From positions 12,302-76,301 of IMG/VR virus record IMGVR_UViG_3300023172_000022: a stretch of DNA of 64,000 nt; one strand, written 5' to 3'. This DNA is from a virus (lineage: Duplodnaviria > Caudoviricetes). Within the stretch, counting starts at the first letter, position 1; the number at the start of each line of letters is the position of its first letter. Positions 4,037 through 53,071 of the stretch are shown one piece after another. Made by a program: the position numbers and the translations under genes. The notes beneath the pieces are model-generated. The model saw only the letters and a program-made list of their open reading frames with translations, searched no databases and had not been told where the DNA came from.

Positions 4037-4130
4037 TTAATTCCAAAACCTTTGCCATTGATATTTCTGGCAGTTTACAAATGTAATAATAAATAGTCCA
4101 GAAAATTAAATTATAAATAAGTATTTCCAT
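4029..4130 (-). CDS. Small hydrophobic protein, 33 aa (MEILIYNLIFWTIYYYICKLPEISMAKVLELND)
   Basis: Below the ORF-track cutoff. It has an AAGGAG RBS, a TATAAATA promoter directly upstream, and a stop overlapping the next gene start. Confidence 0.7.
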   Translation of the reverse strand: MEILIYNLIFWTIYYYICKLPEISMAKVLELND

Positions 4131-4148
4131 AATAAAACTCCTTTCAAC

Positions 4149-4156
4149 TATTTATA
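4149..4156 (-). promoter_or_regulatory. T4-type late promoter TATAAATA
   Basis: Exact consensus, between a terminator and an RBS. Confidence 0.8.
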
Positions 4157-4158
4157 CT

Positions 4159-4183
4159 AAAAAAAAGAGGGCCGTGGCCCTCT
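4159..4183 (-). terminator. Rho-independent terminator
   Basis: AGAGGGC/GCCCTCT stem followed by a T8 run on the minus strand, just after the 990-aa gene. Confidence 0.8.
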
Positions 4184-4208
4184 CCAAAATTTAAAATTTC
4201 ATTAAAAA

Positions 4209-7661: not shown

Positions 7662-10600
7662 TTAACTATTAAGTAGTGCAGTAGAAATAAATGTGGTATT
7701 AACACCAAAACCACCTTGCAAAAATAAAATTCTCATTCCATTTCCGTAAGCATTTGTACTACCCAATCCTCTATAAAGTCTTCTTCTATCATTAGTTCCT
7801 GTTGTAGAAAATCTGTCACTAGAAAGAATAGTATCTTCACCAACTGCTCCAGCATCTACAAATCCAATAAGATCTATTTCCTTACCAGTATAAAGGTATC
7901 TGTATGAACCTATTCTGGTTGGGAATTGAATTACAAGTTGTCCATCGTCATTTAATGATAATTGCTCCAATGGATTAATAACCGCATGGGAGTCTCTTTC
8001 ATTAATACCGGCAAACACATGTCTACCCCAAGGTTTCAATATGTCTTTTTCTCTGACGACAAATCTTCTAAATCGTCCTTGTTCATTTAAATCGAAGGCC
8101 TTAATATCTTCTTCAACAACTTCATCTACAACAAATTCCGAAACATAATTTCCGTCAATATCATAAATTCCATCATATGCAAGAGAATTTGATCTACCAG
8201 TAGTTTCAGTTTTAAAGAACGGTGTCAAATCAGAGTATAATACTGGTGGTTCGCTGGATGCATATATACAATGAACAGGTTGTGTTGGTGATGTAAAATC
8301 AGGTTCACCAGTGGTTGAATCTACATGCCTTTGAATGCAGAAAAATGCATTTCTACCTTCTTGTGTGTGCGATTCGTGGTCCTTGATATGGAATACCATT
8401 CCATGATTTGCAATCGTTAATGTATATGTCATTGGATATGAAGCTGCCAGATTTCCAGTTCTACCAGTTCTTCTATAAAATCCTTTTTGTACTCTAACAT
8501 TTGATGTATTATATGGCGTATCATTCAAAAGTTCTGTTGAACTACCCAGTAGATATGAATCTTCATACCTGTATTCACCATCATCTAAAATGCCATTGGT
8601 TACAGTTCCAGTACCAACTGTATAAGTTACACTATATGAATTGCTACTAGTCCAAACGTCTGGGACGCTATTGAAACCATCAACCGTCGAATGATAAAGT
8701 CCAACTCGTCCAGCGTCTGTGTTCATTTTATTTGCCAAGACACCTTTTAACAAATCTCTTTGTGAATATGGATTATTTTTATGAACAGTTGCGCCAAGAT
8801 ATCCTTGATACTGCGGTCTCATACCACCCATGAATCCAGGCTCTCTTTTTGTAATTTTTTGAGTTATATCACTATTGGCTGCAACTTCAGTAACATCACC
8901 ATTTGATAATAATTGATATTCTGTTGCGGCATGAACTGTTAAATACTCAAACTGAGAGCCTTTACCAGTCTGCCCCGAACCAACCTGCAAAAAGCCTTCA
9001 TTAATATATGGAGATGTTTCTGTAAGTTCTTCTCCTCTACTAACATCAAGTCTAAGTCGCCAAGGTTGCGAATTATCAACTCCACCCAAGTTGGTTCTTT
9101 CGTCTGTTTCAAATACAAGTGGGCCCATACTTCTATCGGTAATATATTCAAAAGTATCTATTTCTAAATCCGAAGTATGTGTTTCAAATTGTTTATATGA
9201 TGTATTTCCTAGATTGATTCCGTTATGAGTAGAATTTGGATGTAATTGTCTAAGATTAAAATCAAAAGAAACTTCTGGACCAACAGGTCGTGTTAATCTA
9301 GTACTACTATTGTCATCATCCAATACCAAACTATGATAACTCACTGGATAATTACATGAAGTTGCCCTATCCGCACCAACAGATACGCCCATAGATCCCT
9401 TGCGAACTGGATTGGCCAATGTTCCAAGATCTCTTGCAAGTGGGAAAGACATTCTAATTCTTCCAACATTAGAAAGAGCTGCGGCCCGTGTCTCGGTTAA
9501 AGTAAAATTTATAGGTCCATTATTGCCTGTGTCATCAAAGTCTGTTTCTTCTTCAACTTCTAAAGTTACAGAAAATCTAGCTGCGTCTGGAATGTCCCAA
9601 GTATACATTGAATTCATCCATTCGTCGTCGCGGTTTTTACTTTGAGTATACCAAGCAAGAGGACTTACCATTTTTATTGGTGGCGGCGAATTAGGATCTT
9701 GAGAATATTCAAAAGTAGGATCAAATTTAAGTCTTAAAACATTTGCCATTGCCAAAGCGTCCTTTTGATAACTGAGGCGAATTTCCCCGTCCACCCTATT
9801 TGAGATTGCATCAATTTCCGTATCCGCGCTGGCTGCCCCATTGTATGCAATTTTTGGAGTATTTGCCAAATTAACATAGTTAGGGTCTGTTGTTCCATCA
9901 AGGAACGTTGTTGCTGTATGATTTGTAATTGGCGTGATTGTGTTCAAGGAACCGTTTGCCGCCATAAGATCTTGATTACCATTATAATAATCTATAAGTT
10001 TATTACCAAAAATTGTTCCATCATTGTAAATCCAATAATTTTCTCCGTCTTGATCAGCAGTTCTTGTAGTAATATTTGACGGAGCATTAAACAATCCCCA
10101 TGCTCTGTCATCTCCGTTTGATGATAGATACTTCTGATATTTTGTGTTCCTGATCATATATGCCGATGAATCTTCATTATATTCTATTCTCAATTCAGTA
10201 CCAACAATATCTATATTCATGTATTTTTGAGTATAAGGACAGTCAGATGATTCTAAAAACGCTTCTAGATCTACCAAAAGAGTACTCGCAGTGCTATATG
10301 GTTTTTTCGCTTCAAAAGAATAAGAAATGTCAATTGTATTTTCCCAAGGAGTGTCAGAATCTTCATCAACAAGCCCTGTTAAATTTATAGTAAATATGTC
10401 ACCTTTATTTGCTCCAGTGAATCCACTAACATTGACACTATGAACATAGCCAGGGATAGAATCTGTATAGTGATAATTGTAGAAGTTTAAGTCAGCATTC
10501 GTTACTTGCCAATTATAATAGCCATAGTAATAGCTATAACTTTGTATTGCTCCAATCTGATAATGACAATTTCTTACTGAAACGTCCCTGTTCAGAAAGA

Positions 10601-12203
10601 ACATATCAGCGGCTTTATCTTTTGTTATATCATTATCCAAGTTTGGCCATCCATTTCCAGATGGGAATTTATCCCAAGGGCCAAAAGTAACCGAGTACCC
10701 ATGAGTTCTGAAGGGATCATAGTGGAACGTTGTGTTACTCGCCCCCATCGTCTGTGTGACAAATCCTGTCGGGTGATTAGTTGCTATCGCATTGGTTGTT
10801 CCATCTTCTGGACTTTCTTTGTACCCCCTTGATGAGTTTTGGACGGCTTCCCTGCGCGAGGCGTGATATTTTAAAGATATTGCAGTATCCAAAGCAGCTG
10901 CAGTCGCTGCCGCTAAATCAGTATAAGTATACGCTCGATTCAAAGAGGGACTGCTGCCGCCGAATAAACTTCCCCTTCTTGCCGTTGATGAAGATTGTCC
11001 CCTACCGTGTTCTATAATAGTATTTACAAAGGAATATGTTAGTCCAGATAAAAGAGTTCTTGCGGTTCTTGTGAAAGTCAGCCCCCAATCAATAGATTGC
11101 GTTGAAGCTTCAAAATTTGTTACTGTTCCTTCTGGTATCCCACCATCTGGACTGAGAGATCTGAAAACACCACTAACTTTACTCAAAACATTACTTTTAA
11201 GTAGATGATTGTGAACCTCTTGAGCAAAATCTTCTATATCTTCAGCGACAGCTATAAAAGAAACACTTTCGCTTAATGTAGTGTTATCTGACAATTTTGT
11301 TCCAGTAAATGTTAGAGTATATTGATCGTCAGGCTGTACTCTGTCTGCCCCAGCTGCAAATTCAATATTGAAAACGCCTTGAAATGTTTCATTCTCTGTT
11401 ACATCAGCAGGGAAAAACTGTTCACCTTTATATGTCGTTATCCAAAAATGATGAATAATCGCCCCAGAAGGTTTTCTTTCTTCTTTGTAGTGCCTTAAAT
11501 TACCTTCTGTATCAATACCAGAAGCTCGATCTGGAAATGCAACTACATTTCTTGCTGGGTTTGTTAGTAATCTTTTAATTTTATTAAATTCATTTTCATA
11601 AACAAGTTGTGACAGTCTAGGCAACCCAATATAACCTTGTTGACTAGTCGCTGTTGTTTGGATTGCAACATTTGGAGGAATTCTCTTTAACCAATTTCCA
11701 TCTGCATCTCTATTATCGGGATGTGGATTCAAATATGAAAATAATTCGGCGTTTGGACCAAGAAATTTTGTCTTTTCCATCGGTGACGCCCATGCGGTGG
11801 AGTTCGACGATTGAGGTAACTGCATAGCTATAAAATCATTCCAAGTAGGACTTGCATAGGTATTGTCTTCTATAACTTTTGGTTTTAACTGGTTTCCGTC
11901 ATAGAAATAGTCTGTAATATATGTAACAGGATCACCGGAAGTCCAATCTCCGACGCCAAATGCGCCCTCGTTTGGAGCCGTCGTCGTTGAATCGTAGTAA
12001 TATACAATGAAACTGTCAATATATCTGGTAAGAGCATCATCTGATATAGTAATTTTGACCATATCTGGGCCAACATCTTTAAATCCATTAGAAAGTAAAT
12101 CTGTCGCCAACCTAGATAATAGGGGGGTTTCTTCCTGTCTTTCGGGATCCCAATCATATGCATCTAAATGTAGAATATCTTGTTGTTCTATTGCAACGCT
12201 CAT
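7662..12203 (-). CDS. Large virion structural protein, split-core paralog family member D (1513 aa)
   Basis: C-terminal core YPMTY...IQRHVD...PVHCIY...RFVVREKDILKPW...INPLEQL...GNGMRI is shared with three other genes in the window. Confidence 0.65.
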   Translation of the reverse strand: MSVAIEQQDILHLDAYDWDPERQEETPLLSRLATDLLSNGFKDVGPDMVKITISDDALTRYIDSFIVYYYDSTTTAPNEGAFGVGDWTSGDPVTYITDYFYDGNQLKPKVIEDNTYASPTWNDFIAMQLPQSSNSTAWASPMEKTKFLGPNAELFSYLNPHPDNRDADGNWLKRIPPNVAIQTTATSQQGYIGLPRLSQLVYENEFNKIKRLLTNPARNVVAFPDRASGIDTEGNLRHYKEERKPSGAIIHHFWITTYKGEQFFPADVTENETFQGVFNIEFAAGADRVQPDDQYTLTFTGTKLSDNTTLSESVSFIAVAEDIEDFAQEVHNHLLKSNVLSKVSGVFRSLSPDGGIPEGTVTNFEASTQSIDWGLTFTRTARTLLSGLTYSFVNTIIEHGRGQSSSTARRGSLFGGSSPSLNRAYTYTDLAAATAAALDTAISLKYHASRREAVQNSSRGYKESPEDGTTNAIATNHPTGFVTQTMGASNTTFHYDPFRTHGYSVTFGPWDKFPSGNGWPNLDNDITKDKAADMFFLNRDVSVRNCHYQIGAIQSYSYYYGYYNWQVTNADLNFYNYHYTDSIPGYVHSVNVSGFTGANKGDIFTINLTGLVDEDSDTPWENTIDISYSFEAKKPYSTASTLLVDLEAFLESSDCPYTQKYMNIDIVGTELRIEYNEDSSAYMIRNTKYQKYLSSNGDDRAWGLFNAPSNITTRTADQDGENYWIYNDGTIFGNKLIDYYNGNQDLMAANGSLNTITPITNHTATTFLDGTTDPNYVNLANTPKIAYNGAASADTEIDAISNRVDGEIRLSYQKDALAMANVLRLKFDPTFEYSQDPNSPPPIKMVSPLAWYTQSKNRDDEWMNSMYTWDIPDAARFSVTLEVEEETDFDDTGNNGPINFTLTETRAAALSNVGRIRMSFPLARDLGTLANPVRKGSMGVSVGADRATSCNYPVSYHSLVLDDDNSSTRLTRPVGPEVSFDFNLRQLHPNSTHNGINLGNTSYKQFETHTSDLEIDTFEYITDRSMGPLVFETDERTNLGGVDNSQPWRLRLDVSRGEELTETSPYINEGFLQVGSGQTGKGSQFEYLTVHAATEYQLLSNGDVTEVAANSDITQKITKREPGFMGGMRPQYQGYLGATVHKNNPYSQRDLLKGVLANKMNTDAGRVGLYHSTVDGFNSVPDVWTSSNSYSVTYTVGTGTVTNGILDDGEYRYEDSYLLGSSTELLNDTPYNTSNVRVQKGFYRRTGRTGNLAASYPMTYTLTIANHGMVFHIKDHESHTQEGRNAFFCIQRHVDSTTGEPDFTSPTQPVHCIYASSEPPVLYSDLTPFFKTETTGRSNSLAYDGIYDIDGNYVSEFVVDEVVEEDIKAFDLNEQGRFRRFVVREKDILKPWGRHVFAGINERDSHAVINPLEQLSLNDDGQLVIQFPTRIGSYRYLYTGKEIDLIGFVDAGAVGEDTILSSDRFSTTGTNDRRRLYRGLGSTNAYGNGMRILFLQGGFGVNTTFISTALLNS

Positions 12204-12267: not shown

Positions 12268-13935
12268 TTAATTTATTTCTAAATTGATATTATCTATTGT
12301 TCCATCTGACATTGTAAAATTTAAATAAGATTCTTGTAAGGTATTTCCTAAAAACAGAGAAACTAATGGTATGTCATCACGTACTCCAGTGTGATTAACA
12401 AATGGAATAAAATTGTTAAAATCGTCTGCTCCACCAACCGACTGAACAGTTGAAAATGTATATTTATTTGTATTGGTGTCATATACCAAAAATGTTGTAC
12501 CCGAAGTAGGAATATCTGATATATTATGCCCAGTGTAACTAAAATTCTGAAGATTGGTATTTATAGTATTAATTGCTGATTGGTTTGTTAGAATTGTATT
12601 TCTATTTTCGAGAAGGGTAATGTCTAAATCATATTGTGCAACTTCCAAATCATTTAATATTTCAAAGACATCAGCCAATTGAGAACCAATATTTGTATTT
12701 CCAGCAAGAGCATCTTGTATTTCTTTTAGCGTATCAAAATCTAGACTTACATTATCTAAAAGTATATCGAACCTGTCTTTAATTGCCTTTCTAAAACTTC
12801 CTGTAGTTTGATCATCACCATCTACAATTGCCATCTGAGATTGTAATGTATTAATATCAGATTCCATTGTAGTTATATTGGTATTCAATCCAGACAGAGC
12901 TCCACCAACCAAAGCGTCAAATTCACTTTCTAGAGCATTAAAATCTGCAACATGTGAATTAAAATCATTTACATGATTTGTAAAATCTGTAGATACAAAG
13001 TCACCAAGGGCATCCGCAATTTCTTTAAGGGTATCTCTGTCAGAACTGACACCATCTAATAGAATATCAAATCTGTCTTTTATCGCCTTTCTAAAACTTC
13101 CTGTAGTTTGATCATCACCATCTATAGTATCAATGCGACTAGTTTGTGTGGTTAAATCAGTTTCAACTCTTGCAATTTCAGAGGTTAAATCGGTTTCAAC
13201 TCTTGTAATTTCGGTGTCTAAAATAATATCTGCGTCAAATAAAGAAGTTGCAGAACCAATATAATTAGAGTTGGTATCTGGAGAATAATTTCCATTGATT
13301 GGTTGAAGTCCAGAACCTAAAACTATAGTATTTCGAAAAGTTTCAAAATCTGTTCTAAAATTTAAGGTGTCTCCTAAAGAATCTGCGATTTCTTTTAAAG
13401 TATCTAACTCTGGTATAACACCATCCAATAATTCATCAAATCTTTGTTTTATTAAATATCTTATCGAATCTGGAGTATTTTCGTCTGCCTCTATTATATC
13501 TAATCTTGCTTCAATATCTGCTACATCAATAGTAATTGTACCAGCTTTTGTGGAAGGATCATAAGAAAAGTTGACTCTACCTTCAAATATAAATTTTTCC
13601 ACACCAACTTCGTTTACTATAACACCGTCTACTGAAGTGCCAGTAGTGATCGAAGAACCAATTTGTTGCCACACATTATTGTGAGAATAGTATAAAAGTC
13701 CCGTCTGAGAATCTTTTGCCAATCTTTTGTCTAAAGGACTAGTATCAAAATCAGAAAGAGTGTCAAACTCAGTATACCTGATTAATTGTAAACTATCTCT
13801 GGCTCCTTGTGCGGTAGAGGCCCCAGTGCCACCTTGTGCAATAGCTACAAAATCTCCGTCAGTAAATTCTGCCAGAATTACTTCGCCGTCACCTTGTAAT
13901 ATCGCCTTGATAGGTCTTACTGTATCAAATGCCAC
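12268..13935 (-). CDS. Coiled-coil fibre protein (555 aa) with DTLKEIxDAL repeats
   Basis: N-terminal GGTGAS..AR..L motif, three DTLKEI repeats and heptad-like segments; GTG start with GAGGA RBS. Confidence 0.65.
   Translation of the reverse strand: MAFDTVRPIKAILQGDGEVILAEFTDGDFVAIAQGGTGASTAQGARDSLQLIRYTEFDTLSDFDTSPLDKRLAKDSQTGLLYYSHNNVWQQIGSSITTGTSVDGVIVNEVGVEKFIFEGRVNFSYDPSTKAGTITIDVADIEARLDIIEADENTPDSIRYLIKQRFDELLDGVIPELDTLKEIADSLGDTLNFRTDFETFRNTIVLGSGLQPINGNYSPDTNSNYIGSATSLFDADIILDTEITRVETDLTSEIARVETDLTTQTSRIDTIDGDDQTTGSFRKAIKDRFDILLDGVSSDRDTLKEIADALGDFVSTDFTNHVNDFNSHVADFNALESEFDALVGGALSGLNTNITTMESDINTLQSQMAIVDGDDQTTGSFRKAIKDRFDILLDNVSLDFDTLKEIQDALAGNTNIGSQLADVFEILNDLEVAQYDLDITLLENRNTILTNQSAINTINTNLQNFSYTGHNISDIPTSGTTFLVYDTNTNKYTFSTVQSVGGADDFNNFIPFVNHTGVRDDIPLVSLFLGNTLQESYLNFTMSDGTIDNINLEIN
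12785..13124. repeat. Intragenic 40-nt exact direct repeat (12785-12824 and 13085-13124)
   Basis: gcctttctaaaacttcctgtagtttgatcatcaccatcta occurs twice, 300 nt apart. Confidence 0.9.
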
Positions 13936-13960
13936 CGATTATCCTCTCTTTTATTTGTAT

Positions 13961-15046
13961 TTATGAAACGGCGCCTTCCGAACCTTCACCAATTTGAACT
14001 ACACTACCTCCACTGGATTCTAAATTGATATTAGAAATAAGTGAGTTGTTATTGCTTTGTACGCACGGAACAGGCCGTCTTGCAGCGGACCAACCAGCCT
14101 TTCCGTCTGATGAAGGTCCTCTACTATAATTTCTTATTGTTAAATTATCACTTTGATTCCCGCCGATAATTTCTATTGTGGTATCAGTCTTGTTTCCTGT
14201 CGCAATTCCAACATGTCCCTTTCCAGAATTTTTATAACTTCTCCAAAAAACAATAATGTCACCCCTTTGAATATCATCCCAACCTACTGGAGTGCCATAT
14301 CCTTCATAATTTCTTGCCGTGGCGCTTGCCAGATGTTTATGTCCAGATCTTTTTAGTGTTGCACCAACAAAAACTGCACACCAATGATTATAACCACCAC
14401 TTGGTAAAAATGCATATTGTCCTAAACCAACCTCTTTCCATAACGAAATAATATTTTGATTATTACCCTGTTCTGTCCATCTTCTTGTAGTCATTGCCTC
14501 GTAAGCAACATCAAACGGATTTCTTAATGGCACATCTTCGCAATTTCTAGAAGATAGTTCTTCTACATTCTCATCTTGAATTTCAGCCGTATCCGGCAAT
14601 CCTAAACCACCCTCACTGGGCGGTAATTGTGATATATTACCCCCACCAGAACTTTCTGTATTACTAGGTTGTGAATCTGTAAAGTCTGGATGTGGGATTG
14701 GACTAAATTTAATTTCTGGAAACTTTGGTGGTGTATATTTTTCTGTACTATCTCCGGCGTTTACATTTCCACTTCCAGTTCTTATAAAGGAACCACAACT
14801 AATTGGGTCCATCTCTCGCGCCACACCTTTTTTATTTACAAAAACTGATCCAGACCCTTTGGAAATATTGCCTGCGTGTGGTGGAACATTGGGACATGCA
14901 TGTGGTTTAAAAATGTCAACCTTTTCTCTTAAAGTTGGTTTTCCATTCGTAATTACATTATTACTACCAGCTGGACAAGTTCTTGGGGGAAAACAACCAT
15001 GTCCTGTGCATGGATCTGTATTTTGTCCTCTACTTACATTTGGCAT
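13961..15046 (-). CDS. PAAR (gp5.4-like) spike-tip protein fused to a TIGR02594/NlpC-P60(CHAP)-like cell-wall hydrolase domain
   Basis: The N-terminal ~100 aa have the PAAR pattern (D.CTGHGCFPP...GS.NV..NG.P...HAC...H.G.I..GS.SVFVN.K.VAR..D.ISCG...GS.NV.AG). The C-terminal part has HWCAVFV...ARNY...RGDIIVF.R...GHVG...IGGNQS. Start is probably the ATG at 15046 (GAGGA RBS). Confidence 0.85.
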   Translation of the reverse strand: MPNVSRGQNTDPCTGHGCFPPRTCPAGSNNVITNGKPTLREKVDIFKPHACPNVPPHAGNISKGSGSVFVNKKGVAREMDPISCGSFIRTGSGNVNAGDSTEKYTPPKFPEIKFSPIPHPDFTDSQPSNTESSGGGNISQLPPSEGGLGLPDTAEIQDENVEELSSRNCEDVPLRNPFDVAYEAMTTRRWTEQGNNQNIISLWKEVGLGQYAFLPSGGYNHWCAVFVGATLKRSGHKHLASATARNYEGYGTPVGWDDIQRGDIIVFWRSYKNSGKGHVGIATGNKTDTTIEIIGGNQSDNLTIRNYSRGPSSDGKAGWSAARRPVPCVQSNNNSLISNINLESSGGSVVQIGEGSEGAVS

Positions 15047-18000
15047 AAGCACTATATCCTCTTGTCGTCACCAGTATATCAGTTACTTGTTGATAATAGG
15101 CACTTTCACTATCGGGTCTTATTGCACAATTAAGTAACAATGGTTCTATATTTTCCAACCTTTCCGCTTCTATGGATGATACTGCAACATTACCCAAACT
15201 CATTTCTAACAATAAAATATCAAATTCTTCTTTAGTCATATTTAGTTGTCCTAAATCATAAAGTTCTTGTAGTTCAACTTTAGAATTTTCCATTTCTGTT
15301 TTGTTTAAATCGTTGTTAAATCTACCATATCCAGCTTCCCTTAATTTTTTAATTTTTTCTGTTCTAGTTAATATCTCGCCTTCCCAATATCCAAGTTGTG
15401 TATCCGGCAAGGTTTGTTCTTCTGGTTTAACTTTATTCGTATGCAACCATAGATCTCTGTCAAAAGAATAATTATTATGAACTTTTAATTCAAAGTTAAT
15501 TTCTTTTTTAAGTCCACCAGTCCCATCTTGTTCAAAATTAAATAATAAGTATTGTCTATCATCTTCTATATTTGTTATATATTTTTGTTCTACAACGAAA
15601 TTTGTATCAGTTATGACCAAATATGAATATGCAGCCAATTGATTGATTTGTTCATTTAGACTGTCTATCTGTTCCTGTAATATTTCTATTAAAACTTGAT
15701 CGGTAGTATTATTCAATTCTTGTTGAATTTCATCTCTTTTATTTGTTGCAACAATTTCTGCCTGAATTGCAGTGAGGTCGTATTCCGATGTTTCAGTATA
15801 TTGCTCAAAATCAAAGTCAAAATTTCTGTCCACTTCTACCTCAAAAGTCCATACATTTTTTATTACTGGTGATTGATTAGAATTAAAAATAACGGGAAAT
15901 AATTCTGGGCCTGTTGGAGAAGAAGAGATTCTCGCCCTAGAAGTGACTCCTGTTGTGCTGTTATGTTGTTCTACTGTGTCGCCAAAAGAAGGTAAAACTG
16001 CGTCATCTGGTTCTACGATTTGTATTATTCCTCTAGATATAGCACTCGCTAATATTTTATATTTAAATGTTCTAGGAGTTTTCATATCAAAATCTGTCCA
16101 ATCCAAATCTATTGGTGGATGATGTCCTTCGTCAGTCACCCAATTTTCTGTCGCATACTTATTTAAAAATATATCCATATCACTGATTTGTCCCGTCAAT
16201 CTACCATCTGTCGTTAATGTCAAACACTCAAGAAGTCTGTTATCACTTAAAAATTCGTAAGACCAAATATATCTACCAGCCTCTATTCCTTTACCATTTT
16301 TTGAACCAGTATTCATATTAAAATTAACAAATTCAAATTCATATAGTGGGTCATCTTCTCCTAAAGTAAGAGTTATTTCATATTTTATTTCTGATGTACT
16401 CATAGTAGAAGTTTTAATGTATTCCATTGGCACGAAATGATGCCCATAATAAAGTTTTGGTAAATTTACTGCTTCGTGACCATAAGCTTCAGAACCACCA
16501 GACTTTATTCTGCCTATTGATGATTGAATTTTCATTGGTTCAAAATTTGGCAAACTTTTTACATTGTGATAATAGGTTTGTCCTACAAACAAATCAAAAA
16601 CAAAAAATGGAGTTGACTCATATACAACTTGATTACCACTATATTTGCCGGAAGATTTTCCAAAAACTACAAAATCTGAAATTTGTGCAGTTGAAAATCT
16701 CTGTCCAAATTTTGGATATTGCGATTGAACACTTTCGTATTTTGCTTTTTGTATTGGGTATTGAGATTGTATGCCTTCATATGTTGGTTTCTGAACTGGA
16801 TATTGAGATTGTATGCCTTCATATGTTGGTTTCTGAACTGGATATTGAGATTGTATGCCTTCATATGTTGGTTTCTGAACTGGATAATGAGATTCAATAC
16901 CTTTCAAAGATGCTCTGAAAACCTCTTCTACCATTTTAAACTTAAATATATTAATGTCAGTGTATTGTGTTGGTAAATTTACATAACTTTCATCATTAAC
17001 AAAATAAGAGTATGGTTGTGTATAAACGGCAGGAACCATATTTTCATTTTGAGTCATATTATCCAAATCTAAGAAGAAAAGTTTGTGTAAGAATGTTTTT
17101 TCTTCTTCCTCTTTTAGATATGGACTATAATCTACTTCATATTCATTTAGTTTAGAAAATTGTAAATTTTCTTCAAAGGTTTTATCTGTAGGCCCGACAA
17201 TATAATCCATTTTTACATGCAGCGGATTAAATCTATGAATTCCACTTATAGGTACAAAAGTTTTGTCTGGTGGGCCAATAACCATTGGTTGTATGTAAGT
17301 TGTCTTGGTGGATTCTCTTATTTGAATTAAACCACTATCACCTTGTATTATGAGATCTTTCCCAGAATCAAATCCTGAGTCAATTATTTCGTGCAAGTCT
17401 GTTTTTCTCAAATAATCATTATCTGAAGAAATAATTAATAAATCATCTCTTTGTAAGAAACTATCTATTTCTTTTATCAGTGTAGAAGATTCTAATACAG
17501 TATCTAATGTTCCTTGGAATAATGGTTCACTAGATTTTAAATAATCACTAAATTTGTTTCCAATAGAAAAGAGTTGAGATTCTAAAGTATATTCTCCACT
17601 TTTTTCTATTAAAGACTTTGCTCTTTTTAAAAAATCTTTAGGACTGGTGCTCAATAATACAGATGGAACAATTACATCTTCTATTAATTTTGAATTTAAT
17701 TTTTCATTTATTGTGAATATTGATAAATTTTCTTCAATATAATTGGATGCAGCAACAACAACATCGATAAGGCCATCGGCACCTATAGTTCTTAATTTAT
17801 TTAAGGAATTTATTAATACTTCGGAATCGTTACCATACTTAGTAAGACTTTCGATTATTTGTCTATAATATTGTTTAGCGTCATTATAAGATAATGTACC
17901 TACATTACTGAAAAACCCCTTGTCTTTTCTGAAAATTTGTTTTTCCAACATAGGCAGGAAAACTTCAAAGAAACTATTATCATCAGAAACTGAATTCAAA

Positions 18001-18278
18001 GAATTTAATAGTTCAGTTGCTAAATACTCTGTTTGGAATGATTTTCCGATTGATAGTATTTCGTAATCATTACTAACTGTTCCGACAAATGTTGAATCTT
18101 CGGGCGTAGATTGGATAGAATAAATTGACTCAATATAAGTTGAATTAGAAACATTATTTTCAAAAAATTGACTATATATTTGCACATCAACTTCAGATTT
18201 TGATGTATATATTATGTTGTCAAAGAAAATGGTCTTAGCTTTTACTCTAATTCCATTACTGCCTATAATCTGAGTCAT
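15030..18278 (-). CDS. Large putative virion protein (1082 aa) with a 14-aa tandem repeat and an Ig-like segment
   Basis: Long ORF with QKPTYEGIQSQYPV repeats. YIWS...LTLTTDGRLTG resembles a putative Ig module. Confidence 0.55.
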   Translation of the reverse strand: MTQIIGSNGIRVKAKTIFFDNIIYTSKSEVDVQIYSQFFENNVSNSTYIESIYSIQSTPEDSTFVGTVSNDYEILSIGKSFQTEYLATELLNSLNSVSDDNSFFEVFLPMLEKQIFRKDKGFFSNVGTLSYNDAKQYYRQIIESLTKYGNDSEVLINSLNKLRTIGADGLIDVVVAASNYIEENLSIFTINEKLNSKLIEDVIVPSVLLSTSPKDFLKRAKSLIEKSGEYTLESQLFSIGNKFSDYLKSSEPLFQGTLDTVLESSTLIKEIDSFLQRDDLLIISSDNDYLRKTDLHEIIDSGFDSGKDLIIQGDSGLIQIRESTKTTYIQPMVIGPPDKTFVPISGIHRFNPLHVKMDYIVGPTDKTFEENLQFSKLNEYEVDYSPYLKEEEEKTFLHKLFFLDLDNMTQNENMVPAVYTQPYSYFVNDESYVNLPTQYTDINIFKFKMVEEVFRASLKGIESHYPVQKPTYEGIQSQYPVQKPTYEGIQSQYPVQKPTYEGIQSQYPIQKAKYESVQSQYPKFGQRFSTAQISDFVVFGKSSGKYSGNQVVYESTPFFVFDLFVGQTYYHNVKSLPNFEPMKIQSSIGRIKSGGSEAYGHEAVNLPKLYYGHHFVPMEYIKTSTMSTSEIKYEITLTLGEDDPLYEFEFVNFNMNTGSKNGKGIEAGRYIWSYEFLSDNRLLECLTLTTDGRLTGQISDMDIFLNKYATENWVTDEGHHPPIDLDWTDFDMKTPRTFKYKILASAISRGIIQIVEPDDAVLPSFGDTVEQHNSTTGVTSRARISSSPTGPELFPVIFNSNQSPVIKNVWTFEVEVDRNFDFDFEQYTETSEYDLTAIQAEIVATNKRDEIQQELNNTTDQVLIEILQEQIDSLNEQINQLAAYSYLVITDTNFVVEQKYITNIEDDRQYLLFNFEQDGTGGLKKEINFELKVHNNYSFDRDLWLHTNKVKPEEQTLPDTQLGYWEGEILTRTEKIKKLREAGYGRFNNDLNKTEMENSKVELQELYDLGQLNMTKEEFDILLLEMSLGNVAVSSIEAERLENIEPLLLNCAIRPDSESAYYQQVTDILVTTRGYSAYAKCK
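16717..16904. repeat. 42-nt tandem repeat, three exact copies (16759-16884) plus degenerate flanks
   Basis: Unit tattgagattgtatgccttcatatgttggtttctgaactgga. Confidence 0.95.
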
Positions 18279-20401: not shown

Positions 20402-23400
20402 TTAAGAAACGTCTGGGGGAATGAAATCACTGTATTCTGGTCTGATAGAACCACCTCTTACTAAAAGCATAATTCTCATCCCATTACCATATGGTAGCGT
20501 TGAATGCATACCAAGATAGGTTCTTTCAGAAGAAGTTGTTGCAGAATTTGTTCCGGTGTGCCAAGTATATGGAAAACGGAAATTCAATTCTTCAGAACTA
20601 TTGGTTCCTGTGCCGGCTGTGTCTCCAGTTACCGAAGAGCTCTGCACACTATCCAAATCATACTTTGCGTTGTTGGCACCAACATTAACAAAACCTCCCA
20701 TAGTACTTGCATCTGCTGATGTATAACAAATCAAATCCATTTCATCTTCTGGGTAGATATATCTCTGACTTGTCATTGGGGTTGGAAAGAAAGTAACCAA
20801 AGTTTTTCTATCTGTTAGTGCAAGTTGTTCGTATGGATTAATAATAGCAGGACTATCCACTTGTGGAATAATAGCCGACACATGTTTGTCCCAAGGTTTT
20901 AATACATCTTGTTCCCTGATACAGAATCTATAAATCGCTTTAGACTCGTTGTGTGGATTCATCCAAGATGCCGGAATATCTGGGTCCGATGGCAATTCAA
21001 TCAGATATTGAGATGTTGCATTAGGATCAATGGCATAATTCTCATATGCAATAGTTACTACTTGAGAATTTGCAATTTCATCTCTAACGTATAGATGATC
21101 CGTTTGCAACATATATGCATAAACATTTTGTTCGTTTCCAAAAACGGGTATTTGAGTAAACTGTGGAACACCATCAGAATCTACAATATATTCTTCAGGA
21201 GCAACCGCAGCGTTTATTTCAACATTACTGACATATACACTCAACAAACTCGTATTTTCAAGAGGACCCGTCCCATCACCACTTCTGCCAACTGGATTGA
21301 TATATCTATTTTGATATCCCGCACCTTTCCATCTATAATTAACTAAAACTTTTGGTTTTTGTCTGGCGATGGTGCCGCCAGACGTGTTGAGCGGATCATA
21401 AGACCAATCTGTATCTGTGTCATTAATTTCGTGAATAACTAATTGTCTTAACGAATTATTAACTGGATTTTCTACAGGATGCAAAAACTTAATGCCAAAT
21501 CTTTTTACTGGATAGGTTTCACCCCTAAATGTATTTGTAAAATTATCAATTGCTTGTACTTCTAATTCCCAATGCACACCCCTTTCCAATTCAACATAGT
21601 CTTGGAATTTATATTCGGAGTGCCATCTTGCCAAATAAATAGATTCAATTTCCAACCCTTGGCCCGCTGGTCCCAATCCCCATTGATATGCAGTATTAAA
21701 ATTAACTAGTTCTGTATAATCTACCCCAAGATATGCAATATCGGGTGCTTGGGAGGAGATCGTCGGATCCTTGGTAGTAGCAATAGTAGGAAAATCTGAC
21801 ACATGAGCTGCCGTAATATAATCTGTGCCAACGGTAAATCCGGGCGAAGTAAGAGAACCAACCTCCGATAAATTGGTATTTGCAACCAAATAATTGTTAA
21901 AGTTTCCAAAAGTTGTGCCAGTTGTAGTTGCAAATATTCTATCTTTATCTGTTATAATACTTGAAACTACTCTATCGGTAGATTTTAACTGTCTACCATC
22001 AATATCATAAATATCACCTAATTGATCATATTGTAGGTTAACTTGACCGGTAATTGAATTTACAGTTTTACTCCAATTTTGATACAATGCAATATTGGTA
22101 TTAGAGGCCTCGACAGCTCTTTTACTTGGCGAATAAACGCAGTGTATAGGAGATTTTCCTTCTTCCAATTCTATTTTACCAGATGTATTATTTACATGTC
22201 TTTGTATTACAAACCATGCATAGTCATCATCTTGATCTACAGATGCATGATCCCACATAAACAAACCAAGACCGTGGTCTGTGACAGTAAGTCTATATTT
22301 TACAGGATATGTTGGAGTAATTAGAGGGTCATCTTTGCCTGCACGTCTGAACCAACCAGAGCGAGACTTTCTAAAGCCATCACTACTATCATAAAAAATA
22401 TCACATAACTCGCCAGGCCGTCTAAAAGTTGGTCCTTTGATACCATCACGACCTTGTGTACTACTTAAAGTTCCATTATCTGAAATTTGATATTTTGTGC
22501 CAGCAAAAACATTAATTTCATCTTTTTGTTCATTATATTCAAACATCAATCTCCATTTTTGTGGAGCTCTACCCTCCAACCAAGCAGAAGATGCAACCAG
22601 ATCTGTTGGAACTGTAATTCCTGAAGGTATAATATCTTTTTTTGAAGAAAGAATATCAACACCTTTTTCGGATTCTACAATAAATCTCGATCCAATTCTA
22701 CGAATACAATTCATTACATCAGACTGATTTTGTTGACCATTTTCATCAATTACTGGATAAGAATTTGCGTCTGGACTTGAATATGGATAAATGATATTGA
22801 ACGATTGTTGTTCTATTTCTTCTTCTGGAATAGACATTCTCCAACTATTTGCGGCATAACGAACTCCAGAAATCATATCTGGTTCTAAATTATTTTCATC
22901 TTGTGTAAATGGTGTTAAAATTGTCCCGAATGCAATTGTACCATCGTTAGAAATAGATTCAATACGAACTTCACCTCTGCCATATTCTTGGATGATTCTT
23001 TTCTGCAAATCATCAGACGAGAAAACTGCATCAGTACCTGTTATTTTAACATTCACTGATGAGTTGGTTTGATTTGACGCATACGAAACTACGATTGTTC
23101 CGTTTTTCATTTTTGAATCAGACCAATCATATGTGTAATGATTTGCATAAGGATGTAAAGTTAAATCCATTGCTAATTGTTTTAAAACGCCATCTTCATA
23201 ATTACTATAATACTGTGTTTTGGTAAAATAATCTAATATAAGTCGATCATTTGGATTTGGAATCGAAGCATTATTCAATGTAATTGAACCATATGGCGCT
23301 ACTGACGGAACAATTATAATAATGTTATCAGTTCCTGTAGATGGAGTATTATAAAATGTTATGTTTTGGCCATTTACCAAATAGTCATTATTGATTTGTA

Positions 23401-50711: not shown

Positions 50712-52226
50712 CTATGGATTTAAATCTATTTTTGGTGCTTTGATTGTGTGGTTGCCACCGGAAGTTATATCTATTTTGCCACCGACACCTGTAGTTGATT
50801 TTTTACCAACTACTAAATTAAAGTTTCCTTCGACCACTATAGTTAAATTACCACCAACATGTAAATTTTTATTACCCATAACTAAATCAAAACCATCTCC
50901 AACTGTTTTAGAAACCTTTTTCCCGTCTGGATGATATTCTTCAAAAGAACCAGATCTGTGATAAGTATGAATTCTTTCTGCGCCTGGAGTATCGTCAATT
51001 TCTAATACATGGCCTGTAGGAGTCCTTATCGCTTGATTATATGGATAAACGGCGGCATAAGGAGATTCTGGCTCAGTAAATTTAGAATTACTGACAAGTT
51101 CATTTTTTGTTTCTGAACATTCGGATTGTGGTTCATCCGGCAAACCACATCTTGTGGGCAAATCAGAATCTGCTGTTTGCGTAGGAGTTTGTGAACTATT
51201 AGTACTATTAACAGTACGATTGCCAGATTGATTATTAGTATTTACACTTTGACTTATTTCATTAGAAATACTATTCATTGATCTTTGATTTCTTTGATCA
51301 ATAACATCATCTGGTGATAACGCTGCAGCTGGGGTTCCTGTTGGGTCAGACAAAAACATCGCCCTCTCTTCCTGTCTTCTAGTTGCCAATGCATCAATAG
51401 TTTGTCCACTTGCCTTATTGTATAGTAACATTTTGTTTGCAATGGTTTCATTGTCTCTTGTACCATTATTAGTCAATTGGTCAAGTCCGCCGGGCCCAAG
51501 ATTATACGCAAAGGAAGTTAGAGCATCTCTTTGTCTTTCGTTCCAAGTGTAACCGTATTGTTTTTCTTTTTCCAAAACATATCCTCTATATTTTGCTATA
51601 TTTTGTGATAATCTAGCTTCGGCCTCTTGCTCATCAATCACTTCGCCCGGATAATTTGCCTTTGTACCATAACCAATTGAGTGTTGTTTATGATCCCAAT
51701 ATGATTTAGAACTATATCCTTCTTTTGCTTTCAAAAAACTTACCAAATCTTTACTCGCTGCATCATTAAAGGTGGTATCGGATATTTGCGAAACTTTTTG
51801 TCCACTTGGAACAACTCCTGTACCTTGTCCTGTTCCGCCATTAGCAACATCCTTAGAATAATTTCGTAGTGTTTGAGGAACTTCTTCACCTCTACCATTT
51901 CTATTGATTCCCTCACCCTGACTCCCTTTAGTGCCGGGCAAAGTGCCCCATATTATAGGTTCTTGTGCATACTCACCATCTCTAAAGAAACCGATAACCC
52001 AAGAATCGGTTCTAACACCAGTTGGACTTTGACCAATTCCACCAACTGACGCACTTGTAATTGGCATAATCGGAAGAGCCCAAGGCAAATCTTCTGTTTC
52101 AATGCCTTCATCATAAAAACCAAAAATTCTTACTTTAACTCTGCCAATTTTCAAAGGATCTTTTTCAAAATCTTCGACAACACCTGTCCACCAAACAAAA
52201 TTGTCTTTTCCAATAAAATTTAACAT
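50712..52226 (-). CDS. gp5: Baseplate central spike gp5 with OB-fold, GH24 lysozyme and beta-helix
   Basis: WWTGVVE..DPLK.GRVKVR OB-fold; EGY....YWD....SIGYG...DAL.SFAYNLG...RR.EE..MF lysozyme; YPYN...GH..E.DDTPG.ERI...H.SG; ends KIDLNP. Confidence 0.95.
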   Translation of the reverse strand: MLNFIGKDNFVWWTGVVEDFEKDPLKIGRVKVRIFGFYDEGIETEDLPWALPIMPITSASVGGIGQSPTGVRTDSWVIGFFRDGEYAQEPIIWGTLPGTKGSQGEGINRNGRGEEVPQTLRNYSKDVANGGTGQGTGVVPSGQKVSQISDTTFNDAASKDLVSFLKAKEGYSSKSYWDHKQHSIGYGTKANYPGEVIDEQEAEARLSQNIAKYRGYVLEKEKQYGYTWNERQRDALTSFAYNLGPGGLDQLTNNGTRDNETIANKMLLYNKASGQTIDALATRRQEERAMFLSDPTGTPAAALSPDDVIDQRNQRSMNSISNEISQSVNTNNQSGNRTVNSTNSSQTPTQTADSDLPTRCGLPDEPQSECSETKNELVSNSKFTEPESPYAAVYPYNQAIRTPTGHVLEIDDTPGAERIHTYHRSGSFEEYHPDGKKVSKTVGDGFDLVMGNKNLHVGGNLTIVVEGNFNLVVGKKSTTGVGGKIDITSGGNHTIKAPKIDLNP

Positions 52227-52258: not shown

Positions 52259-53071
52259 TTATGGGTTTAGTTCTATTTTACTACCATCAGCCTTTATTGT
52301 GATTTCTGCACCACCCAATAAATCTTTTTCCTGTGAAATTTCTTCACTATAATCACCTTTAACTAATATTTCTAAATTTTTTTGTGTTAGAATTTCATAA
52401 TCACCAGACACATGAATATATAAATCTTCAGCATATATGTCGTATGAATCATTTATGATTCTTTCTTTATAATTACCATTCGGTGCATATTCTTCATAAC
52501 TACCACTGACATGATATTTTGACAATCTTTCATTACCACCAGTGTCTGCGAGCTCTGAATGGTGGCCAGACCTACTACTATATGAGCCAGTTGTATTTGG
52601 ATATACTATATCATCTTGACTTGATGGTTCTGTTATCCTAGAAGTTTCTTTGTATTCTGATATAGTATCCTCTTTCACTTCTCTATTGATTCTATTGACA
52701 TCAGATTCAGTAACTTCACTACGTCCAACTAAAGGCCCAGTACCCTCATCTCCATACTGATCCTGTAGTGCATCATCATTAGTCACTCCGTAAATTGTAC
52801 CCCAAACTAAAGGGTCTTGTGCCGTGTGTCCATCTCTAAAAAAACCAACGCACCACGAACCCTTTACAACTCCAACTGGAGATTGACCAATATTATTTAC
52901 ACATGCACTTGTAATTGGCATGATAGGTAGGGCCCACGGTAAATCTTCTTCAGAAATGTCGTCATCATGGAATCCATAAATTCTTACTTTTACTCTACCT
53001 ATTTTTAGTGGGTCATCCTTTACATTTTCAATAACACCTGTCCACCATAAAAAATCTTTCTCATTAAACAT
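52259..53071 (-). CDS. gp5: Second gp5-like spike protein lacking the lysozyme domain
   Basis: Closely similar OB-fold, YPN...SGH..E..DT.G.ER....H.SGSYEEY, short beta-helix; ends KIELNP. Confidence 0.85.
   Translation of the reverse strand: MFNEKDFLWWTGVIENVKDDPLKIGRVKVRIYGFHDDDISEEDLPWALPIMPITSACVNNIGQSPVGVVKGSWCVGFFRDGHTAQDPLVWGTIYGVTNDDALQDQYGDEGTGPLVGRSEVTESDVNRINREVKEDTISEYKETSRITEPSSQDDIVYPNTTGSYSSRSGHHSELADTGGNERLSKYHVSGSYEEYAPNGNYKERIINDSYDIYAEDLYIHVSGDYEILTQKNLEILVKGDYSEEISQEKDLLGGAEITIKADGSKIELNP

Follow-up and report, generated by a model that had tools for sequence, protein, structure and literature searches.

The closest described counterparts of the protein reported here are gp5.4, the tip of the phage T4 central tail spike, and the extended PAAR proteins of T6SSs. 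A preprint on T4 gp5.4 describes its metal site as composed of three His and one Cys (PMC12407873). According to a review of 224 jumbo phages, phage PAARs are stand-alone tips that sharpen the spike and bear nothing else, whereas PAARs with cargo are particular to T6SSs (PMC7824862), and another article places NlpC/P60 toxin domains among the T6SS polymorphic toxins (PMC3482391). Our literature search found no description of a phage PAAR fused to a hydrolase, a result to be read with the proviso that supplementary tables (e.g., those of PMC8651086) could hold cases. Here we describe an uncultured marine T4-like phage in which a needle-tip PAAR protein is fused to a predicted cell-wall peptidase (PAAR-CHAP). 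The protein is probably the tip of the central spike, a PAAR monomer seated on a gp5 trimer and tethering a peptidase that would cut peptidoglycan at entry.

Architecture of the PAAR-CHAP gene and protein

Within the window (the whole 64,000-nucleotide stretch of DNA analysed), PAAR-CHAP is encoded by an open frame that begins slightly upstream of the ATG at 15046. This ATG is the likely true start because homologues begin MPAV..., and the gene's first 17 nt are shared with the upstream 1082-aa ORF, whose stop codon occupies 15030-15032. The protein has four parts: a PAAR domain, a linker, an NlpC/P60-CHAP core and a tail.

13961-15052, minus strand: open frame (ORF listing)
15057..15063, minus strand: Shine-Dalgarno-like AAGAGGA, 10 nt 5' of the ATG (sequence reading)
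13964..15046, minus strand: PAAR-linker-CHAP CDS, 361 aa (Pfam, NCBIfam and PHROG matches; start from homologue N-termini)
14753..15046, minus strand: PAAR spike-tip domain, residues 1-98 (PF05488, NF033420, phrog_281 and PDB matches; complex model)
14543..14752, minus strand: Pro/Ser/Glu/Gly-rich linker, residues 99-168, predicted to be disordered (composition, pLDDT, alignments)
14057..14542, minus strand: NlpC/P60-CHAP (TIGR02594-like) peptidase core, residues 169-330 (profiles, invariant columns, Foldseek)
13964..14056, minus strand: C-terminal tail, residues 331-361 (alignments, pLDDT)
13961-13963, minus strand: stop codon

Profile searches matched the expected family in each half of the protein. 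Residues 26-86 match the PAAR motif (PF05488) with 35.5 bits, above the Pfam cut-off of 27, and the PAAR half also matches phrog_281 (E 8.2e-26) and the T6SS PAAR model NF033420 (T6SS_PAAR_dom; E 5e-20), the latter with 71.4 bits, under its NCBIfam cut-off of 124 bits. The solved PAARs matched by sequence were 4jiw_D (E 6.6e-11), 4jiv_D (E 8e-9) and T4 gp5.4 (5iv5_ZA; E 1.5e-3). H16, H49, H57 and C84 align with the H/H/H/C residues of 4jiw_D, which we take to be its metal ligands, suggesting a putative three-His-one-Cys site and agreeing with the sequence-only reading of this DNA, which had proposed an N-terminal PAAR with Cys/His ligands. H16 is invariant in 8/8 fused homologues; H49, H57 and C84 are lost in one subtype (P0014/L007).

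The same reading had noted a Pro/Ser/Gly-rich linker of ~70 aa, and the computed composition of residues 99-168 bears this out (Pro 14%, Ser 14%, Glu 11%, Gly 9%). From about residue 120 onward, alignments show the linker to be homologous to that of a cassette borne by gp5 in other phages, and tblastn matches in those gp5-CHAP loci begin at PAAR-CHAP query residues 118-169. The tail ends in a conserved GG-x-V-(T/S/V) motif that is also common to the gp5-borne cassette. Both linker and tail have pLDDT <50 in an AF2 monomer model built from an 8-row alignment; the model has a mean pLDDT of 49.1, leaves the PAAR part unfolded at ~30, and was used for the CHAP half only.

Residues 218-297 match the CHAP family (PF05257) with 28.8 bits against a Pfam cut-off of 26. 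Residues 220-309 match TIGR02594 with 52.9 bits (E 4.6e-14), under the curated NCBIfam cut-off of 70.55 bits, and by that cut-off the core is a relative of TIGR02594, not a member; thus the CHAP-like assignment made from the sequence stands and membership of TIGR02594 does not. The predicted Cys/His dyad within WC...GHVG...GGNQ held up in alignments: WC (C223), GHVG (H278) and GGNQ (N297, Q298) are invariant in 10/10 aligned relatives, and the same four residues in 8/8 fused homologues in a separate alignment, making C223, H278 and N297/Q298 candidate catalytic residues. A conserved Cys pair, C169 and C328, flanks the core. Among PHROG families, phrog_1259, annotated 'baseplate hub subunit and tail lysozyme', matches the CHAP half best (E 2.6e-21), through its CHAP-like C-terminal part, and 7cfl_A was matched in the PDB by sequence (E 6.9e-4). 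The CHAP half is predicted to have a papain-like alpha+beta fold, in a model that is moderate there (block means 64-87); Foldseek returned 7cfl_A (E 2.1e-4), followed by MepS, CwlO and other NlpC/P60 chains, with 13 matches at E <=1e-3. Since these structural neighbours are DL-endopeptidases, 'endopeptidase' fits the predicted enzyme better than 'amidase'; of the amidase or peptidase cargo suggested earlier, the NlpC/P60 peptidase part is retained.

The gp5 paralogues and predicted docking of the PAAR domain

The sequence-only reading had assumed a single gp5, followed directly by gp25, with the PAAR gene ~36 kb away among accessory genes. The order of gp5 and gp25 was confirmed, as was the separation (~35.7 kb between PAAR-CHAP and the long gp5); the window contains, however, two adjoining gp5 paralogues, one of them lysozyme-less.

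52262..53071, minus strand: short gp5 paralogue, 270 aa, Gp5_OB plus beta-helix, without lysozyme
50715..52226, minus strand: long gp5 paralogue, 504 aa, Gp5_OB plus T4-type lysozyme plus beta-helix
50274..50702, minus strand: gp25-like baseplate wedge gene, directly after the long gp5

The window has no gp5.4-like ORF between the long gp5 and gp25. PAAR-CHAP itself belongs to one uninterrupted block of baseplate and fibre genes on the minus strand of this T4-like myophage, and its neighbours are not accessory genes, as had been thought, but large structural and fibre-like genes, the downstream one encoding a 555-aa fibre-like protein. The 31 larger window ORFs scanned here gave T4-like structural or replication families or no family. 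The phage is of T4-like lytic type. This gene context supports a role at the spike tip.

We modelled docking with the short gp5 only, using three copies of its residues 165-270 together with PAAR-CHAP residues 1-105 and shallow alignments that we built ourselves. The complex reached an ipSAE of 0.87, compared with 0.01 for the best of three controls, and passed a mark that is reached by 58/80 solved complexes and 2/110 mismatched pairs. The runs agree in >=93% of contacts, with pLDDT >=91 for the partner and 92 for the PAAR. In the modelled interface, each of the three gp5 copies contributes residues 261 and 263-270, which face PAAR residues 28-35, 65-72 and 92-102. The pairing of PAAR with a gp5 trimer had been suggested beforehand, and in silico the PAAR monomer is predicted to cap the blunt C-terminal end of the short gp5 beta-helix trimer. 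Because similar complexes have been solved (VgrG-PAAR, gp5-gp5.4), passing the mark indicates likeness, not proven binding.

These predictions lead us to propose that PAAR-CHAP would be incorporated into the virion as the tip protein of the central tail spike, a functional counterpart of T4 gp5.4, with a single copy of its N-terminal PAAR cone capping the gp5 beta-helix trimer at its blunt C-terminal end. The lysozyme-less 270-aa gp5 is the most likely partner, and its orthologue lies directly upstream of PAAR-CHAP in a relative (L007); the lysozyme-bearing gp5 is a possible alternative because it carries the same C-terminal KI(D/E)LNP motif. The flexible linker of ~70 residues would tether one NlpC/P60-CHAP cysteine peptidase per virion. 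Upon sheath contraction, the spike would pass through the outer membrane and carry the enzyme to the periplasm, where, if catalytically active, it would cut peptide stems or cross-links of the peptidoglycan around the entry site. The predicted peptidase would thereby complement the glycan-cutting gp5 lysozyme, although, with that lysozyme already present, it is not obvious why the phage would require another enzyme.

Carriers of the cassette and alternative roles

The PAAR-CHAP fusion is not an assembly artefact: its layout is conserved in homologues and it is intact in independent assemblies. Seven fused homologues of 342-361 aa (34-55% identity) keep the PAAR-CHAP layout, the identical PAAR-CHAP sequence occurs on four contigs, and, among the best 150 representatives of 50%-identity clusters, those that extend across PAAR and CHAP together number at least 12. 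Contigs from two other metagenome runs span positions 13500-15500 of the window with 8 and 10 substitutions and no indel, and 6/7 of those falling inside the gene are synonymous. Contigs from RNA libraries match parts of the gene at 100% identity (five pieces in X15, three in X16), possibly through DNA carry-over; such matches are no evidence of transcription, nor do the gaps between them count against it.

Among the IMG/VR loci examined (the best 80 of 380 CHAP relatives), 16/80 have the PAAR-CHAP architecture. In one relative (L002) the order of genes around PAAR-CHAP is the same as in the window. In L007 the order is gp27-like, short gp5, PAAR-CHAP, gp25, gp6, and PAAR-CHAP thus occupies the slot of T4 gp5.4, flanked by gp25 and a gp5 that lacks lysozyme. 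A second PAAR-CHAP clade (L024-L032) has the gene among nucleotide-metabolism genes, not tail genes. Each computational check proposed in the sequence-only reading and carried out here favoured its interpretation. One of them, the survey of relatives, revealed the CHAP cargo on different carriers, PAAR or gp5: in 11/11 gp5OB-CHAP loci examined, the gp5 C-terminus bears the same linker-CHAP-tail cassette, and the next ORF downstream is a stand-alone PAAR in all 11. An AU test of the four T4-like PAAR-fused CHAP rows as one clade, a group chosen after seeing the tree, gave p 0.126, which is compatible with one origin or with several. Ten other proteins with a CHAP domain (266-957 aa) were compared with PHROGs, and in each the CHAP part alone could be assigned.

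When 50,697 phage records were searched by tblastn, 0/411 matching records covered >=80% of PAAR-CHAP (<=40% among the matches listed), and 0/2237 covered >=80% of a gp5-CHAP protein (P0011). Extended-looking PAARs in ACP17 and Atu_ph07 were rejected, being short or unannotated stand-alone PAAR ORFs. Ten other extended PAARs from the representative search were scanned for cargo, which yielded three DUF6402 domains and one endonuclease domain; lacking genomic context, they are probably bacterial T6SS proteins and say nothing on phages.

A different reading of the locus is that some other, stand-alone PAAR is the real tip and that PAAR-CHAP is a soluble or differently mounted lysin with a PAAR-like fold. 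Such a PAAR could lie in the missing part of the record (G000), because the record is only ~38% complete; the ~36 kb between PAAR-CHAP and gp5 would also suit this reading, and the two gp5 paralogues could take two different tips. The sequence-only reading had itself raised such a separate PAAR, and our searches revealed none: this record has a single PF05488 match, relatives that are 70% (G001) and 73% (G002) complete have one each, and the Tox-PAAR-like profile gave no match in the searched genomes. A DUF4280 search was blank too, but it carries no information since no control genome matched either. Moreover, the L007 gene lies in the gp5.4 slot, the PAAR half has retained its metal-ligand residues and docks at the gp5 end in the model, and, according to the T4 gp5.4 preprint, tip genes need not adjoin spike genes (PMC12407873). 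We regard a different tip as quite improbable. It is unlikely, though a little easier to envisage, that the PAAR cone is a structural tip whose C-terminal domain does not cut peptidoglycan and instead binds the wall, acts on another periplasmic target (for instance, a lipoprotein-wall link), or serves in superinfection exclusion or lysis from without. Invariance of the Cys/His/GGNQ residues argues against this, as do the nearest sequence and fold matches, which are peptidoglycan hydrolases, and the L007 record, which has a single short gp5 and no lysozyme-type gp5. The sub-threshold TIGR02594 score, the conserved tail behind the enzyme core and the delivery of a single copy per virion by a phage that also has a gp5 lysozyme would nevertheless fit a non-cutting domain.

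The remaining alternatives place the protein outside the tail. An endolysin or lysis-module enzyme that reuses a PAAR-like region as a wall-binding or regulatory module would account for the weak 'endolysin' PHROG matches of the CHAP half (phrog_21357, E 4.7e-6; two others, E 0.002 and 0.0065) and for the many CHAP-domain relatives of endolysin size among the best 80 of 380, but the gene lies in a structural block with translational overlap, the best PHROG match is to baseplate-hub proteins, and the cassette is otherwise borne by gp5, making this role very improbable. Finally, PHROGs files the PAAR family under 'moron/auxiliary', NF033420 is a T6SS model, and the nearest bacterial matches of PAAR-CHAP are extended T6SS-type PAAR proteins, all of which would suit a moron encoding an evolved-PAAR toxin that is loaded on the host T6SS against competitors. 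Such a function is hardly credible for a phage of T4-like lytic type in which the gene keeps its position within the tail module or beside gp5; none of the scanned window ORFs is annotated as Hcp-, VgrG- or Tss-type, and none stands out as an immunity gene.

Comparison with known spike tips and effectors

Taking PAAR-CHAP as a loaded spike tip, the family represents a phage tip bearing predicted enzymatic cargo, which related phages carry on their spike protein instead, and it may be viewed as a phage counterpart of the 'loaded tips' of T6SSs. It would add a class of predicted virion-associated peptidoglycan hydrolase, to which standard annotation gives a wrong label ('moron' or 'PAAR motif of membrane proteins'), and it lends itself to studying how a baseplate accommodates a protein carried at the tip, how that protein gets across the outer membrane, and whether phages set a precedent for T6SS loading. 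We tentatively raise a broader scheme of modular spike loading, possible but doubtful at present, in which the linker-CHAP-tail cassette moved between the gp5 C-terminus (in the manner of an 'evolved VgrG', with a stand-alone PAAR as its constant neighbour) and the PAAR tip (in the manner of an 'evolved PAAR'), with an independent PAAR fusion in a second phage lineage. Bare and lysozyme-bearing gp5 share the docking motif, so one genome could build virions with different enzyme loads, and loaded tips would be a trait of phages, perhaps passed down to T6SSs and not their own invention.

With T4 gp5.4 (PDB 4KU0, 5IV5; PMC12407873), PAAR-CHAP shares the PAAR fold family, the ligand pattern of three His and one Cys, and a monomer capping the gp5 beta-helix, the last by model only here; the gp5-gp25 slot is shared in L007 only. 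Unlike gp5.4, a stand-alone protein of 97 aa, PAAR-CHAP has 361 aa with enzyme cargo, its gene lies ~36 kb from gp5 and the sequence similarity is weak (E 1.5e-3); it is therefore no gp5.4 orthologue in the sense of a free-standing ~97-aa tip whose gene adjoins gp5.

Evolved PAAR effectors of T6SSs have the same succession of N-terminal PAAR, linker and enzymatic cargo, the T6SS PAARs 4jiw and 4jiv are the best solved sequence matches of the PAAR half, and related phages, which have the cargo attached to the spike protein instead, recall evolved VgrGs. PAAR-CHAP differs from these effectors in belonging to a phage tail module without T6SS genes, in having no evident immunity gene and in its presumed purpose, genome entry rather than the killing of rivals; with respect to the NF033420 family, its score is under the cut-off and its context is one of phage baseplate and fibre genes.

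Like T4 gp5-type tail lysozymes and PHROG 1259, PAAR-CHAP would place a predicted peptidoglycan hydrolase on the central spike for local wall digestion, and relatives bear the same CHAP cassette on the gp5 C-terminus. Here, however, the carrier is the PAAR tip and not gp5, which would therefore give one copy per virion instead of three, and the enzyme has a peptidase fold, not that of a muramidase. The predicted enzyme resembles DL-endopeptidases (Acd24020, 7CFL; MepS; CwlO) in its papain-like Cys-His fold and WC...GHVG...GGNQ pattern, and is distinguished from them by the flanking conserved Cys pair, the C-terminal tail and its predicted tethering to a virion protein in place of secretion or a lipid anchor.

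Domains and genomic setting of PAAR-CHAP

The sequence-only reading described a PAAR domain joined through a Pro/Ser/Gly-rich linker to a peptidoglycan hydrolase-like domain with a Cys/His dyad, and this layout was borne out by Pfam, PHROG, solved-structure and Foldseek matches. The gene for this protein (PAAR-CHAP, from an ORF search) and the other large genes considered with it are:

13961-15052, minus strand: PAAR-CHAP ORF, 361 aa when read from the ATG at 15046
15030-18278, minus strand: 1082-aa ORF without a family match
7662-12203, 20402-23989, 24024-28679 and 28744-30684, all minus strand: large paralogous proteins of 646-1551 aa
34488-41702, minus strand: 2404-aa protein matching phrog_358 (function unknown; E 0)
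58891-61242, plus strand: 783-aa tape-measure or gp29-like protein with a glycine-zipper segment

In the alignment, homologues of PAAR-CHAP begin with the same MPAV... N-terminus as the product read from the ATG at 15046, and an AAGAGGA lies 10 nt 5' of this ATG. At its start the gene shares 17 nt with the end of the 1082-aa ORF upstream, and the gene that follows begins 26 nt past the stop, indicating that PAAR-CHAP lies in a tightly packed, co-oriented block.

By Pfam thresholds the protein belongs to both the PAAR family (PAAR_motif, residues 26-86, 35.5 bits against a cut-off of 27) and the CHAP/NlpC-P60 family (CHAP, residues 218-297, 28.8 bits against 26). It falls short of the NCBI thresholds for membership of TIGR02594 and NF033420; nevertheless, T6SS_PAAR_dom (E 5e-20, 71.4 bits, curated cut-off 124) and TIGR02594 (E 4.6e-14, 52.9 bits, curated cut-off 70.55) are clear relatives of the two halves despite the sub-cut-off scores. 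Among PHROGs, phrog_281 (PAAR) matches at E 8.2e-26, and residues 178-312 match positions 992-1123 of the 1179-position profile phrog_1259, “baseplate hub subunit and tail lysozyme” (E 2.6e-21). The N-terminal half matches solved T6SS PAAR structures (4jiw_D, E 6.6e-11; 4jiv_D, E 8e-9) and T4 gp5.4 (5iv5_ZA, E 1.5e-3), with the H/H/H/C positions of 4jiw aligning with H16, H49, H57 and C84, while residues 199-307 match the autolysin domain 7cfl_A (E 6.9e-4). The linker (residues 99-168; 14% Pro, 14% Ser, 11% Glu and 9% Gly) was modelled as disordered by AF2, and the AF2 monomer, poor overall (mean pLDDT 49.1), was usable for residues ~170-330 (block means 64-87). Foldseek with this portion returned 7cfl_A (E 2.1e-4), followed by MepS, CwlO and others, placing it among NlpC/P60 peptidoglycan endopeptidases. 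C169 and C328 (window 13964-14542 region) flank the CHAP core and may form a disulfide, judging from their conservation in PAAR-borne and gp5-borne forms alike. The two forms also share the invariant motif RR-x(3)-C and, at the end of the tail (residues 331-361 in PAAR-CHAP), a conserved GG-x-V.

The IMG/VR record is 76.3 kb long and 38% complete by CheckV, and the window covers 64 kb of it. PHROG matches identified gp4, gp2, gp3 and gp26-like head-completion and tail genes, a tape-measure-like protein, gp32, gp48, gp53, a gp27-like protein, two gp5 paralogues, gp25, gp6, gp7 and gp8. Judged by gp6, the nearest isolates are T4-like cyanophages (~34% identity) and, at 35.5%, Pelagibacter phage HTVC008M. 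The source phage is a deep-branching marine T4-like myophage. PAAR-CHAP is flanked by the 1082-aa protein and a 555-aa fibre-like repeat protein, and the genes around it encode a series of very large structural proteins, so the earlier description of its neighbours as accessory genes is inexact. The four large paralogues listed above share a C-terminal domain matching phrog_12249 “tail sheath” (E 1e-38 to 1e-49), and they look less like sheaths than like a fibre or baseplate-appendage family whose members have an anchoring domain in common. In the 1082-aa protein, a 14-residue repeat (QSQYPVQKPTYEGI-like; window ~16670-16890, minus strand) occurs in about four tandem copies and also yields spurious repeated ORFs on the plus strand. 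The 783-aa protein matches “tail associated lysin” PHROGs (phrog_1047, E 6.6e-18), and no Pfam hydrolase domain was found in it.

Conservation of the fusion and the carriers of its cargo

A search of 5.8 billion proteins recovered a sequence identical to PAAR-CHAP on four contigs and seven fused homologues of 342-361 aa (34-55% identity). C223, H278, N297 and Q298, together with the tail residues R323, R324 and C328, are invariant in all 10 aligned sequences. When 1.84 billion cluster representatives were searched with a profile, 9733 proteins matched at E 1e-3 or better, and among the best 150 of these, 12 proteins of 320-360 aa matched both domains in one stretch. Moreover, two additional metagenome runs, neither flagged as a possible source, have contigs that span window 13500-15500 in one piece with 8 and 10 substitutions and no indels; six of the seven substitutions within the gene are synonymous, the seventh being T153A in the linker. 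These comparisons indicate that the fusion is real and under selection. Near-identical DNA to window 13500-15500 occurs mainly in salt-marsh metagenome runs, with one freshwater-labelled and two marine-labelled runs, and parts of it are present in salt-marsh metatranscriptome libraries.

Relatives of PAAR-CHAP are encoded by 380 IMG/VR stretches. When the CHAP-bearing ORFs of the best 80 of these 380 loci were sorted with local HMMs, 16 were PAAR-fused, 11 were fused to a gp5 OB domain, 3 were 5'-truncated and 50 were of other kinds, mostly 160-316 aa with several of 684-957 aa; the 50 also include a 521-aa ORF (L023) whose N-terminal part matched neither HMM. In the 141-kb record of locus L002 (70% complete), local gene order is the same as in the window and both gp5 paralogues lie ~35 kb from PAAR-CHAP. 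In the 123-kb record of locus L007 (73% complete), in which the only gp5 found lacks a lysozyme, the order is gp27-like, short gp5 (258 aa), PAAR-CHAP (335 aa), gp25 and gp6, placing the fused gene exactly at the position of T4 gp5.4.

In three proteins (P0011-P0013) and the 11 gp5-CHAP loci (L009-L012, L014-L019 and L021), a gp5 OB domain and beta-helix are followed by the linker-CHAP-tail cassette of PAAR-CHAP. In these gp5-borne cassettes the CHAP region is 42-49% identical to that of the window protein, and both share a ...C-G-E/Q-x-P...NPYD motif and an RRAxxC...GG-x-V end. A stand-alone PAAR ORF (~100-125 aa) directly follows gp5-CHAP in all 11 loci (e.g., L010, gp5-CHAP at 3952-5460 and PAAR at 5460-5759), with gp25 next in L017 and L010; for two of the stand-alone PAARs, Pfam confirmed the domain with scores of 38.0 and 30.6 bits (cut-off 27). 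Three more kinds of CHAP protein (L052, L066 and L079/L080) also directly precede a stand-alone PAAR. The cassette is thus persistently tied to the spike and tip pair, with a variable attachment point.

A second PAAR-CHAP clade (L024-L032; 326-350 aa, 29-33% identity; e.g., L028 3727-4779) belongs to a different phage type, its genes lying among nucleotide-metabolism genes (ribonucleotide reductase small subunit, thioredoxin-like and deoxyribonucleotidase genes). One of its records measures 72 kb at 21% estimated completeness, suggesting a very large phage. In a quick maximum-likelihood tree of 61 CHAP cores, one clade (SH-aLRT 99) held both the PAAR-fused and the gp5-fused forms of the T4-like phages, and the second PAAR-fused clade lay in another part of the tree (SH-aLRT 99). 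Given the well-supported branches, the PAAR-fused label must have changed at least twice; a single origin of the PAAR fusion inside the T4-like clade was not rejected (AU p 0.126).

The spike and its candidate tip

The earlier reading placed gp25 directly after gp5. The adjacency holds, but there are two adjacent gp5 genes:

52262-53071, minus strand: short gp5, 270 aa, Gp5_OB and beta-helix without lysozyme
50715-52226, minus strand: long gp5, 504 aa, Gp5_OB, T4-type lysozyme (PF00959) and Gp5_C

The two proteins share 64% identity in the OB domain and end alike in KI(E/D)LNP. The pair, which could form alternative or mixed spikes, is kept in the 70%-complete relative (G001); the 73%-complete relative (G002) and relative G004 have short gp5 only, and relative G006 has gp5-CHAP only.

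The records were searched for another tip. PF05488 has one match in this 38%-complete record and a single match, the fused gene, in each of the two relatives of 70% and 73% completeness; no second PF05488 PAAR was found in any of the three. A profile search found no Tox-PAAR-like domain (PF13665), and the blank result of the DUF4280 profile carries no weight, since that profile matched no control genome. The gaps between the two gp5 genes and gp25 are too short to hold a gp5.4-like ORF.

Three copies of short gp5 residues 165-270 were modelled with PAAR residues 1-105, from alignments built for this analysis. The median ipSAE was 0.87, versus 0.01 for the best of three controls, a pass that may reflect likeness and is not proof of binding, since similar complexes have been solved (VgrG-PAAR, gp5-gp5.4); when the tool was calibrated, 58 of 80 solved complexes attained the pass mark, as did 2 of 110 mismatched pairs. 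Runs agreed in at least 93% of contacts, with partner pLDDT of at least 91, and the interface comprised gp5 residues 261 and 263-270 of all three copies and PAAR residues 28-35, 65-72 and 92-102. In the model, therefore, a PAAR monomer caps the blunt end of the short gp5 trimer, and the shared end motif suggests that long gp5 could be capped too.

Proposed action and comparison with known systems

PAAR-CHAP is a real and conserved protein that probably works as a phage spike tip with a peptidoglycan peptidase as its cargo. Its domains, conservation and genomic context are seen directly and its docking comes from a model; incorporation into virions, peptidase activity, bond specificity and any linker processing are inferred. 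The PAAR cone would cap the spike, and the linker would leave one peptidase free to hang alongside the tip or behind it. Contraction would drive the spike through the outer membrane, and the cargo would act in the periplasm, to which the spikes of P2 and T4 are delivered, according to one account (PMC12407873). There the tethered peptidase would cut peptide stems or cross-links locally, and the gp5 lysozyme would cut glycan strands.

No account of a PAAR-hydrolase fusion in a phage turned up in literature searches. None of 50,697 phage records matched the PAAR-CHAP fusion across 80% or more of its length, and gp5-CHAP, over the same fraction of its length, was not found in the isolate phage collection. 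In a PAAR census, viruses account for 0.36% of 47,625 PAAR proteins, and its main text contains neither “peptidoglycan” nor “NlpC” (PMC8651086). A passage of a jumbo-phage comparative review describes phage PAAR proteins as “standalone ... unfused to any effector domain” (PMC7824862), a generalisation that PAAR-CHAP contradicts.

T4 gp5.4 is a stand-alone protein of 97 aa, and PAAR-CHAP is not its strict orthologue. NlpC/P60 toxin domains are described among bacterial T6SS and PVC toxins (PMC3482391), and the principle behind PAAR-CHAP, which offers a tractable system, is already familiar from the T6SS and gp5-type tail lysins. Given its phage tail context, PAAR-CHAP is not a T6SS component. 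It would, however, work like an “evolved PAAR” effector of the T6SS, and the gp5-borne cassette proteins of relatives would work like an “evolved VgrG”; the phage arrangement of gp5-CHAP with a directly following PAAR resembles that of an evolved VgrG plus PAAR.
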